DNA of 64,000 nt from positions 1,856,001-1,920,000 of the forward strand of contig CAVSBL010000002.1 of the NCBI GenBank assembly GCA_963726255.1, in the 5' to 3' direction. This stretch comes from Candidatus Bathyarchaeota archaeon (GTDB taxonomy: Archaea; Thermoproteota; Bathyarchaeia; 40CM-2-53-6). The position numbers were made by a program, and so were the translations under genes. The notes under the pieces are model-generated. The model did no database searches. It worked only from the letters and a program-made list of their open reading frames with translations, and was not told the origin of the DNA. The stretch's first letter is position 1; the number at the start of each line of letters is the position of its first letter. Shown in pieces: positions 32,988-35,727 of the stretch.

Positions 32988-33156
32988 AATAAAAGAGTTA
33001 GGAGTAGAGCATCACAGGGAATGTGAATTCCACAGCGATGAGTAGAGATCCACAAGAGATTGTAGACGTCTACTAGGTGTCCGTGATAAAGAGACATTCT
33101 TGAGATTCGGAGTCGGCTTACCCTTAATACGTTCTTTAGCGCCGAAGTACGTTGGC

Positions 33157-33339
33157 GCCGGGGTAGCCTAGCTAGGTAAGGCGACAGAGCCACCGGACAA
33201 CCGGGACGTCCAACCTCGAGATCTGTGAAGTATGGGCCAAGATAGCTGTTGGTCCTCTGGGCCTCGTGGGTTCAAATCCCGCCTTAGAGGATAATGACGG
33301 AACCTTGGAGGGCGGGGGAAACTCCCACCCCCGGCGCCA
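33157..33339 (+). tRNA. tRNA-Ser(CGA) with three introns (30/31: 33188-33213; 37/38: 33221-33243; 59/60: 33277-33322), CCA encoded
   Basis: Removing the introns gives GCCGGGG/CCCCGGC acceptor, GCCT/AGGC D-stem, ACAGC-CTCGAGA-GCTGT anticodon arm, GGTCC/GGGCC variable arm, GTGGG-TTCAAAT-CCCAC T-arm, G73-CCA; relaxed BHB motifs at the junctions. Confidence 0.88.
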
Positions 33340-33460
33340 TTAACTGAACCAATAATTCTGGTCTGAACATGTTTATCACGGCTTAGGAGGTAGGAAGTTG
33401 GCTGCTGCTTTTGGCTTCGACGGAATTATCGTCTCTTGACCAGTTGCTTGGGAGGTAACG

Positions 33461-34366
33461 TCAAGCACATCTGACGTTACCAAAGATTCCCATGATCTCC
33501 TTGATCAAAATCGCTGAAGTGAAGGCAGTCGTTCCCGCTCGTGAGTCGCAACGTGGTGAGTACTCAACGATGTCAGCCGCGATTATGTCTAAATCTGCGA
33601 TGCCGTGCAATATCTCAATCAACTGTCTTGTGGTCAAACCACCTGGTTGCGGATTTCCAACTCCGGGTGCATAAGCGGGATCTAGACAGTCAAGATCGAT
33701 GGATAGGTATACAGGCCCGCCTTGCAGCCTCTCTCTTATTGCAGAGCTGACAGTATCGCATCCTTTTGTGTACACGTCGTGCGACGTGTATTGCATGAGA
33801 TTAAGTGACCTGATGCGGTCATCTTGTTCCTTCGTCGAGGCTCTTATGCCAACGAAGCAAACCAGTCCCGAACTTGAGCCCTTTTCATCCAGTATTCTCG
33901 AGACGACGGTGGCGTGGGAGTACGGGGTATTGCCATAACTCATGTATAGATCTGGATGGGCGTCGAAGTAAAGTAGTGACAGTCGATTCCTCTGAATTTC
34001 CGATGCAACCATGAAGGCTGGGTACGTAACAAAATGATCTCCACCAAGGAAAAGCAATGGACTCCTGCCATGATCGTGAAGGGTTGCCGTCGAGTAGAGA
34101 GCTTTGTGAAGACTCGAATGTTTCTTAACTCTTACATTGCCGTGGTCGCAGACCTTCCAACGCTCCGTCAAGTCATCCCCTCGTTCCGTGAAGTGATTAT
34201 ACAGTAGACTGCTCGTTGCCCGCCTAATGGCGTCCGGGCCTCCGGCAGCACCGCGCGTGAAGGAAGAAGTGGCATCCCATGGTATGCCTACGACCACGAA
34301 ATCCTTACCGTGAGAACGAGTTAGGCCAAAGAAGCTCTCGCTCCGTTTGAATTTCAAACTACGCAA
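33461..34366 (-). CDS. speB: Agmatinase/ureohydrolase
   Basis: GPDAIR, GGDH, DAHPD, SIDLDCLDPAYAPGVGNP..GG, DIVEYSP. Confidence 0.85.
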   Translation of the reverse strand: MRSLKFKRSESFFGLTRSHGKDFVVVGIPWDATSSFTRGAAGGPDAIRRATSSLLYNHFTERGDDLTERWKVCDHGNVRVKKHSSLHKALYSTATLHDHGRSPLLFLGGDHFVTYPAFMVASEIQRNRLSLLYFDAHPDLYMSYGNTPYSHATVVSRILDEKGSSSGLVCFVGIRASTKEQDDRIRSLNLMQYTSHDVYTKGCDTVSSAIRERLQGGPVYLSIDLDCLDPAYAPGVGNPQPGGLTTRQLIEILHGIADLDIIAADIVEYSPRCDSRAGTTAFTSAILIKEIMGIFGNVRCA

Positions 34367-34474
34367 ACTTGCTCATCGCGGATAGCCGCCGCTACTTGTC
34401 TTATGGCTTTGGATATCTCGTTAGTCTGATTGCTGTAGGATTCAGCTACTAGGTTACTTCGCAGGTGAGGCTTG

Positions 34475-35209
34475 CTACTTTTCGAGAGTGACTTCGAAAT
34501 TCTCGCCGACCTTTAGTCCATGCCAACGTCTATCAACCCCGACATTCCGCGTGTTCCTGACTCGCATAAGGTCTCGCGGGGGGTCGCTAGTCTCATCAAG
34601 TCTGAAGTCTACCACGATCTCACATGCCCCTTCCAATCTCTTGTAGGCCCAGTCGCTGAGCACTCCTTTCATTACTCCGGCGACATAGACCATCTTACGT
34701 ATTCCCGCGATCGGAAGAAACCGAGTTAGCTCCAACTCCACCCAAGCTCTTTCGTCGTTAAACCGGGCAAATAATGAATCGTCATCGATAATCATCAGAT
34801 GTTCTGGGTTTGGGGTTCGCCGCATATCTTCCCGGGACATGATGAGGCTGATGTCTGCAACTTTCAAGGAATCCCAATGGTACTTTTCCTTTGATTTCTG
34901 GCCAAGCGAGATCGTGTACGCGTCGAAGATCTGCAGTCTCTCATATTCAGCATCTACGAACGTGTTCTCAAGTTGAGATGCATCCAGCCCGAGACGCTTG
35001 AGCTGTGAGCGCACCTGGTCAGGTGGTTGGGTTCCCGCCTCATAGTGAACACTTCTGTTTTCTGTGCTCTTCAACCAACCAGCTGCGATCGTAACGGAAG
35101 CGTTGAACCATTGCGAGGCCGGATCATACTCTACCAGAATGTTAGATCCTGCAGGCACTGGCCCAGAAGTTAGATCCTCAATTATCGGAATTCGTGTCAA
35201 AGCTGCCAT
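34475..35209 (-). CDS. Degenerate KaiC/RAD55-like ATPase-fold protein (no intact Walker A)
   Basis: TRIPIIEDLTSGPVPAGSNILVEYDPASQ in place of GxPGxGKT; C-terminal VVDFR..R.MRVR. Confidence 0.75.
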   Translation of the reverse strand: MAALTRIPIIEDLTSGPVPAGSNILVEYDPASQWFNASVTIAAGWLKSTENRSVHYEAGTQPPDQVRSQLKRLGLDASQLENTFVDAEYERLQIFDAYTISLGQKSKEKYHWDSLKVADISLIMSREDMRRTPNPEHLMIIDDDSLFARFNDERAWVELELTRFLPIAGIRKMVYVAGVMKGVLSDWAYKRLEGACEIVVDFRLDETSDPPRDLMRVRNTRNVGVDRRWHGLKVGENFEVTLEK

Positions 35210-35467
35210 TGAGGAAGTGTGAGATGTACATTGTAGGTTTTTCTGTGTGTGGGTCAACTGGTGCGAATGTCCGATTTTGCGCTCCTCTTTTTGTGCGTAT
35301 CAGTGTTGCGGTAGAACAAATTTGAACTTTCAAATTTCGTGATCATAATGGAAATCGGAAAATGAGGCCACCCAGAAGTTTATCTTCAAAGTTAGCGAAT
35401 AGATGTTCGGTGTGAGATTTGACAGAGATTCCTTCGAAAGACGAAAGTACGCCCCCAGGTTCGCGGA

Positions 35468-35683
35468 GTGAATTCAACTCACACCCGTCGGTTCAAATCC
35501 CACCCCCGGCGCCATTTTCCGAACCTACGGCGGGTCATGGGTGAGTTCTTCACCTACGCCTTCCGGATGCAAAAACAGGGCTACAGACCATCAACCATCC
35601 GCAGCGCCATCAGCAGCCTAAAAGCGGTAGCAAAGAAAGCCAACCGACTCAATCAGGATGCTGCGGACATCATCTCTCTCTGA
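35468..35683 (+). mobile_element. Truncated integrase-like remnant with the tRNA att site inside its reading frame (SSV1-type arrangement)
   Basis: RFKSHPRRH is translated tRNA 3' end, followed by FRMQKQGYRPSTIRSAISSLKAVAKK (resembles integrase N-terminal SAM-like helices); stops after ~60 aa. Confidence 0.65.
35484..35516 (+). repeat. att-like direct repeat: intron-less copy of the tRNA-Ser 3' end
   Basis: GGTTCAAATCCCACCCCCGGCGCCATT (35490-35516) equals spliced exon3/exon4 junction plus CCA-TT of the tRNA at 33157. Confidence 0.85.
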
Positions 35684-35727
35684 TGAAACGAAAACTCAAG
35701 AAATAGAGGGGTGAGCTCTTTCAGAGC

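Follow-up and report, generated by a model that had tools for sequence, protein, structure and literature searches.

What does it mean that a mobile-element attachment (att) repeat copies the 3' end of a tRNA gene in its intron-less form, when the gene itself is interrupted by an intron? This question is raised by a locus in a 64,000-nt stretch of a Candidatus Bathyarchaeota genome (the 64-kb window below), in which a tRNA-Ser(CGA) gene stands upstream of such a repeat and the repeat runs into an integrase-like reading frame. The first-pass annotation took the repeat for the fossil of an integration into an intron-less tRNA gene, followed by the arrival of an intron that would have locked in the cargo and protected the site. 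The fossil part of that reading is right: conserved element ends and an integrase stub flank the repeat, which was indeed left by a mobile element that integrated at a serine tRNA gene. The stretch 33340-35683 is probably best understood as a small group of fossil integrative elements arrayed at tRNA-Ser(CGA), whose att site has the intron as one of its reassorting parts.

The tRNA-Ser(CGA) gene and its T-loop intron

The gene lies at 33157..33339 on the + strand and forms the attL side of the array. It encodes its CCA and has three inserts, and the source genome offers no other tRNA-Ser(CGA) candidate. ARAGORN calls no tRNA in the window, nor at 8 loci, and misses this gene because of its three inserts; once these are removed in silico the program recognizes tRNA-Ser(CGA), although inserts 1 and 2 do not have unique borders. 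The intron option of ARAGORN mis-called the gene as tRNA-Pro, and the 'Ser(cga)' that it placed at C2:1225067 is a class-I tRNA with a short variable arm, hence not a serine tRNA. For the source genome as a whole this option gave 35 calls, partly wrong, and the Rfam tRNA model found only 18 tRNA genes; multi-intron tRNA genes seem to be the rule there. Within the genus the gene has 20 orthologues, with exons and inserts 1 and 2 common to all 20, and the uninterrupted (intron-less) sequence is found exactly in 14 of them.

The intron, of 46 nt and type A, interrupts the T loop at position 59/60 and is placed at 33277..33322 (+) by its bulge-helix-bulge (BHB) motif, a shift of up to 3 bases being possible at the DNA level. 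Its hBHBh' motif scores 5/5 in the T stem, 3/4 in the central helix and 7/7 in the intron helix, with 3-nt bulges, and the motif fits all 17 distinct intron-bearing copies in the genus, including 7 on the element side; the central helix is complete (4/4) in each of the 10 type-B copies and reaches 3/4 in the 7 copies of types A and C. The outer helix is the T stem, TTCA pairs with TGAA (type B) or GGAA (type A), and the 3-nt bulges, AAU and A(A/C/G)U, stand 4 bp apart at the exon borders, next to the inner intron helix. Among the 7 type-A copies, pairing holds in 84% of cells, sliding the partners lowers this to 39-59%, and 2 pairs have changes on both sides. To go by these predicted pairings, the 46-nt insert looks like a genuine archaeal bulge-helix-bulge tRNA intron at 59/60, and the introns of the genus look functional. 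A degenerate att duplication was considered as the source of the T-loop-like 3' ends of the introns; the BHB explains them better, because it is by pairing with TTCA that TGAA acquires its T-loop look.

Assembled contigs from two samples pass over the intron. One, which stems from an RNA library (X20), covers 33057 to 33280 and goes on with the 3' exon, with inserts 1 and 2 and a 100-nt leader kept and with variants of the type of the closest relative (G021), and one from the sister sample X2 also passes from 33280 straight into the 3' exon. The two contigs suggest either that a very close relative has an allele without the intron or that a transcript was partly processed, and the X20 contig may stem from a genomic intron-less allele or from carry-over of DNA into the RNA library.

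The att repeat and the decayed elements around it

The repeat (35490..35516, +) extends from the T loop to CCA plus TT and is an exact 27-nt copy of the 3' end of the tRNA gene minus the 46-nt T-loop intron: the gene carries GGTTCAAATCC (33269-33279), then 46 nt, then CACCCCCGGCGC (33326-33337), and the repeat equals the gene minus those 46 nt. At up to 3 mismatches the 27-mer has this sole match in the 64-kb window and none in 100 shuffles, and the whole source genome holds 10 matches: 6 lie on the element side, one is the tRNA-Ser(GCU) intron/exon junction, and 3 fall in other tRNAs, at 2-3 mismatches. The repeat is thus an att copy of the spliced tRNA-Ser, as was first proposed; an intron-less isoacceptor, offered at the time as another possible source, drops out, since no intron-less tRNA in the genome matches the repeat as well. 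The source genome has five more intron-less att copies, each with a conserved element end on its 5' side, and two of these stand in tandem behind tRNA-Ser(GCU).

An ORF of 71 aa (35468-35683) is present across the repeat, its frame reading RFKSHPRRH. Residues 23-66 of this ORF align with residues 22-65 of the full-length integrase P0014 at 66% identity (E 2.6e-12). The only Pfam match of the ORF is the SAM-like PF13102, sub-threshold at E 0.087; PF00589, the tyrosine-recombinase catalytic domain, finds no match in the window copy, which covers just the equivalent of residues 22-65, and the integrase stubs of two relatives have no Pfam matches. Relatives read the att one base over, as VQIPPPAP..., and because the source copy has one extra base near 35531, the 'in-frame' RFKSHPRRH reading joins two frames of a decayed gene. 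Of the in-frame, integrase-like ORF in the first-pass annotation, then, the ORF and its integrase ancestry stand and the continuous frame does not. Judged by its sequence, the ORF is what a frameshift and truncation have left of the 5' end of a tyrosine integrase gene, a remnant and no working member. The orthologous att copy of the closest relative (G021:C113:257) is also intron-less, with the same integrase stub behind it. In run X5 one contig joins 35529 to 35684, skipping 35530-35683, and some relative therefore lacks the integrase stub, with the att almost adjoining the amino-acid permease flank.

With the stub of a relative (G016:C7) as query, 33 homologues of the integrase were found, the full-length ones measuring 304-327 aa and carrying PF00589. 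A phmmer sequence search with P0014 against PDB chains gave 8 matches, the best being XerA (4a8e, 5hxy), XerH, IntI4 and XerD, and SSV1 Int was absent from those 8; the elements thus appear to belong to an Xer-like tyrosine-integrase family. In two relatives (G002:C42 and G016:C7) one unbroken frame runs from the element flank through the att into the SAM-like domain of the integrase, and the att therefore sits in the 5' end of the integrase ORF. The N-termini of P0014, P0015 and P0018 are translated tRNA variable arm, T arm and acceptor, with no intron-coded part; those of P0008, P0006 and P0004 are translated T arm plus a 40-odd-nt insert, and P0002 starts at a GTG inside the 40-odd-nt insert. 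P0008 is a full-length integrase reading through a type-B intron, and in the 'NLSEIL' subgroup 4/4 database integrases have N-termini coded by intron B. By comparison with these relatives, the att of the window copy would also have lain within an integrase ORF, so that integration would split the gene. The SSV-like layout recognized at first pass holds up in this respect, the repeat abutting an integrase stub and the ORF of the family spanning its own att.

No catalytic domain of this integrase family is present in the source genome, which has two N-terminal stubs only and no intact element. A PF00589 search of the same genome gave no tyrosine recombinase, not even of the Xer type, an odd result that may reflect the prefilter of the search. 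The cargo is fixed because no integrase of the family is left in the genome; the loss of the enzyme, and not the intron, does the locking that had been ascribed to the intron. Integrase N-terminal stubs also read out of other tRNA-like 3' ends at C2:2285683-2285952 and C2:2254016-2254213, the former with an element-type left flank and the look of an unsplit attP-type junction for a different tRNA.

From the tRNA to the junction, the source genome has one 2.15-kb cassette, made up of a left end, an agmatinase gene, an ORF of 260 aa and a right end. The left end (33340..33452, +) is the 5' stub of a decayed integrase; read from the att, it gives PPPAPLTEPIILV*. It shares 93% identity over 108 nt with the sequence that follows att2 of G021:C155, and 95% in the first 60 nt. 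Both cargo genes lie on the - strand. The agmatinase, of the arginase family (33461..34366; PF00491 at E 1.5e-70, TIGR01230 at 175.1 bits with a cut-off of 174.3), was not found at the matching locus in G021 and has an 81% identical copy in G014, on another contig; the 260-aa ORF (34475..35257) has no Pfam or NCBIfam match. The right end (35244..35489, +), an 'S-type end' from the integrase-N side, is a conserved stretch of ~245 nt that runs into the att copy, with 82%, 78% and 87% identity to three G021 ends flanking unrelated cargo, and the type also occurs in G016 and G020. Behind the repeat, at 35517..35683 (+), follows the stub of an older integrase gene, with homology to integrase residues 22-65 at 35534-35665.

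Collinearity between the window and the closest relative holds as far as the tRNA on contig C155 and is regained on contig C113, from 35677 onward, at 93-98% on the protein level; the conserved chromosome resumes near 35684, which corresponds to C113:604 onward, at 98%. Behind its tRNA, G021 has an element with an integrase remnant, an att copy, a cassette with like ends and other cargo, and a further att copy. The cargo of this G021 cassette is homologous to C2:122339-124115 of the source genome. There the stretch C2:122339-124292, 94-95% identical to cargo of the G021 array, is 1.77 Mb away; the att copy that it adjoins carries the other element-end type, and no tRNA is close by. This placement, set against the G021 array, means that cassettes or cargo moved between att copies. 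A second locus of the source genome repeats the pattern, with a tRNA-Ser(GCU) gene that carries a type-B intron and then two intron-less copies. At that locus (C2:1248190-1250420, or L002 546-2779) the tRNA gene has three inserts, including the 42-nt type-B T-loop intron, and behind it are two tandem cassettes, each ending in an intron-less att, whose cargo includes a DUF3303 protein and a KaiC-like ATPase.

Short cassettes, conserved ends and unrelated cargo recall an integron-like cassette array, a reading rejected because the ends are decayed integrase 5'/N-side remnants and the site is a tRNA att. A circle of the window's own cassette was likewise discarded, as no contig joint requires one and the joints 35489>33269 and 35387>33297 fit G021-like arrays in the sample. 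Viral contigs scanned with the spliced att and with the intron/exon junction gave no free or circular element with this att: the spliced att had one unrelated match, a tRNA gene on an AT-rich contig, and the junction none. A motif, GTGTGTGGGTC(T/A)A(C)TGGTGCG followed by GAATTTGAAC, recurs on the upstream side of att copies, at ~250 nt, and immediately behind some copies (window 35240-35262; L002 1535-1560 and 2575-2600; L001 about 1330-1370), and may be a promoter or an arm-type binding site.

Intron polymorphism in tRNA genes and element-side att sites

A census of the genus covered 23 genomes, in which left flanks were assigned to classes by eye and the relatives are metagenome bins of 1-10% contamination. 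It found 18 intron-bearing and 49 intron-less copies. The tRNA-Ser(CGA) gene, present in 20 genomes, has the intron in 6 (3 of type A, 3 of type B) and lacks it in 14; tRNA-Ser(GCU) has it in 3 and lacks it in 15-16; and element-side att copies have it in 7 and lack it in 15 (7/22 intron-bearing). One copy with the third intron type, one partial tRNA-like intron copy (G020) and four intron-less copies remain unclassified. Type A introns are 46-47 nt long with a stop codon, type B introns are 42 nt long and open in frame, and the third type is 52 nt long. A tree built on the tRNA 5' part, though weakly resolved, requires 5 changes in intron presence, no fewer than 2 being forced, and the intron-bearing G016 is nested with 99/99 support among the intron-less G019, G017 and G013. 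The intron in this genus is a present-or-absent part of the att site, of three sequence types, and no fixed host feature. The intron-less alleles for which the first-pass annotation had proposed a search of related genomes do exist, and with 14/20 orthologues in that state integration into an intron-less tRNA is plausible. In another Bathyarchaeia bin (L124, about 1110-1240) a different tRNA, with the 3' end CCCCTCCCCCGCACCA, has a ~70-nt T-loop insert and an integrase stub directly behind, so that T-loop introns inside att sites are not confined to tRNA-Ser.

Comparison of introns with their flanks yields conflicting signals. In one clear case, the G016 tRNA and an attP-like copy on G016:C7, the intron goes with the element arm that rebuilds the tRNA, the identities being 95% in the intron, 90% in the right flank and 52% in the left flank. 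Three cases go against such inheritance. The tRNA-Ser(CGA) genes of the source genome and G021 share 44/46 intron positions (96%) with a left flank of 100% and a right flank of 53%; the tRNAs of G016 and G022 have identical 42-nt introns (100%) with a left flank of 92% and a right flank of 53%; and the source tRNA shares 95% of its right flank over 60 nt with G021 att2 and only 83% of its intron. Other introns follow neither side, as in tRNA-Ser(GCU) of G021 and G021:C51 (intron 42/42, flanks 52% and 57%) and several more such pairs, and near-identical introns with both flanks unrelated cannot be explained by any single fixed crossover. A type-A subtype starting with GGCC goes with one subtype of S-type end (G021 att2 and G016:C45:8599; left flank 90%, right flank 58%). 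Correlation of intron with flank identity gives r of 0.31 (left) and -0.02 (right) for type A and of 0.08 (left) and 0.24 (right) for type B, with no consistent linkage. Given these conflicting data, the intron behaves as a module that reassorts with both flanks.

Origin of the intron and comparison with known systems

If the array arose as proposed, the attachment site would run from the tRNA T loop to the 3' end, within the 5' end of the integrase ORF, and the repeat would be the junction of two remnants, a decayed cassette right end on its left and the older integrase stub on its right. The repeat would have kept the intron-less state, which is the majority allele, and gene and repeat would differ because the two recombination partners differed in intron state. 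For integrases that target tRNA genes, crossover is expected in the T loop. It is possible, if somewhat short of an even chance, that strands were exchanged where the shared block has its 5' edge, within the T loop, and that an incoming attP brought the tRNA 3' part together with the intron, as in the model of Sugahara et al. 2012. The repeat would then be the earlier, intron-less 3' end of the tRNA. The locus anatomy, the intron polymorphism, the element-side introns and the integrase loss are direct results; we infer the position of the crossover and the order of events.

Delivery by an element is preferred because the block in common starts right at the T arm, the expected place of the crossover, because the element-side introns keep a BHB predicted to work, because the oldest att copy is intron-less in both the source genome and G021, because the G016 intron arrives together with an integrase, and because the mechanism has been proposed by Sugahara et al. 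2012 and repeated in a 2021 review. The joint inheritance of intron and right flank by the G016 tRNA and C7, and the link of the 'NLSEIL' subgroup to type-B introns, speak for it as well, and both partners of the Sugahara model occur in the genus, namely intron-bearing element-side att copies (7) and intron-less attB sites (14/20 for CGA, 15-16 for GCU). Against it, the introns of the source genome and G021, and those of G016 and G022, go with the tRNA side, their right flanks being unrelated.

A broader and equally tentative reading is that the 59/60 intron is a horizontally mobile module with a single target, the 23-bp sequence of the tRNA-Ser T arm and acceptor that doubles as the integrase att. 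The intron would spread among tRNA-Ser(CGA), tRNA-Ser(GCU) and element atts within and between genomes, with elements as carriers and a short-homology copying step accounting for identical introns between unrelated flanks. Integrase transcripts across an intron-bearing att would in that event be substrates of the tRNA splicing endonuclease; type A, with its stop codon, would need splicing for a full-length protein, and type B would be open in frame.

It is rather doubtful that the intron is instead a resident, independent of the elements, with strand exchange 3' of position 60 in the acceptor part and an intron-less attP, a history in which the locus would be silent on timing. This would suit the pairs in which intron and left flank agree and right flanks are unrelated (the source genome with G021, at 96% in the introns and identity in the left flanks, and likewise G016 with G022), as well as the company that the GGCC-starting subtype keeps with its S-type-end subtype. 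It gives no reason, however, why element-side introns should retain a working-looking BHB with paired changes or why the shared block should start exactly at the T arm, and it leaves unexplained both the link of integrase subgroup to intron type and the intron and right flank shared by the G016 tRNA and C7.

The first-pass history, in which an element entered an intron-less tRNA and an unrelated intron later broke the identity of attL and attR, locking the cargo and shielding the site, is unlikely. It accords with a repeat that lacks the intron and a gene that has it, with the majority standing of intron-less alleles and the patchy and so recent presence of the intron, and with the lack of any intron-less tRNA in the genome that matches the repeat; the protection idea is in print, cited in the text of Sugahara et al. 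2012 (PMC3293823). An intron that landed by itself is nevertheless difficult to reconcile with the same introns in 7/22 element-side att copies. As for the shield, integrase remnants stand directly behind intron-bearing tRNAs (G016, G021) and the full-length P0008 reads through the intron, and the att site is not destroyed by the intron, because the 5' border keeps the T stem, the T loop and 4/5 bases of the next arm and the 3' border offers an A-rich TCC context. Moreover, the source genome and G021 share the intron and differ by a whole element adjoining the tRNA, which implies integration or loss at an intron-bearing site unless the intron spread later, and the cargo is fixed anyway by integrase loss. 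Since the intron comes and goes in the tRNA genes and mobile elements of the genus, it is no later-arriving lock; the evidence speaks against a simple protective lock, and the intron as lock or shield is not supported. That the repeat is a chance match or the leftover of a second, degraded tRNA gene is highly improbable, as just its short length of 27 nt favours the idea, against shuffles without a match, a left flank that is no tRNA body but a conserved element end found beside att copies in three other genomes, and a right flank that is an integrase stub.

Gain of archaeal tRNA introns at odd positions through the att site of a mobile element has so far been supported by one population case (Sugahara et al. 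2012). This genus provides a richer natural experiment on such gain and on the defence that introns may offer against integrating elements, with one 23-bp site, two tRNA genes, three intron types and dozens of host and element att copies, and with full-length integrases of the family on record, the propositions that elements carry introns and that introns block integration are both directly testable.

Among known systems, SSV-type ('suicidal') archaeal integrases and the capture of genes at tRNA genes are treated by Badel et al. 2020 (PMC7253208) and in a review (PMC8371274). As in those systems, the att lies inside the integrase ORF, integration is directed at the 3' part of tRNA genes, the borders carry direct repeats together with remnants of the split integrase, and decayed elements keep chromosomal cargo. 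Differences are that, by phmmer sequence search, the solved structures closest to the present family appear to be XerA, XerH and IntI, the lineage is taken to be mesophilic Bathyarchaeia, and only ~30 codons lie upstream of the att, so that the C-part of the split integrase keeps all domains.

A second likeness is to the tRNA introns of Thermoproteales, for which Fujishima et al. in 2010 and Marck and Grosjean in 2003 reportedly described non-canonical BHB introns with a proposed transposition. Those introns, too, are said to be short, to occupy non-canonical positions such as 59/60 with an hBHBh' motif, and to be near-identical in different genes. Unlike them, every target here shares one 23-bp sequence that is also the integrase att, which provides a concrete route for intron spread.

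A third parallel is the intron gain through an intron-bearing attP proposed for one population case by Sugahara et al. 2012 (PMC3293823) and repeated in the 2021 review (PMC8371274); in the literature searched for a BHB intron linked to an attP, with supplementary files outside its scope, only these two were found, and the text available from a paper on Bathyarchaeia viruses mentions integrases and no introns. In both settings the rebuilt tRNA has the intron and the direct repeat lacks it, the intron state varies among close relatives, and a mobile element is proposed as the intron carrier. The earlier case concerns position 24/25 of one tRNA-Thr, toward the 5' side, next to an intact recombinase and with an attP that was inferred, whereas the present one concerns position 59/60 on the 3' side, two tRNA-Ser genes, three intron types and 7 intron-bearing element-side att copies seen directly, with an intron that also reassorts with both flanks. 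The locus thus represents a new, data-rich variant of a process that has been proposed but thinly documented.
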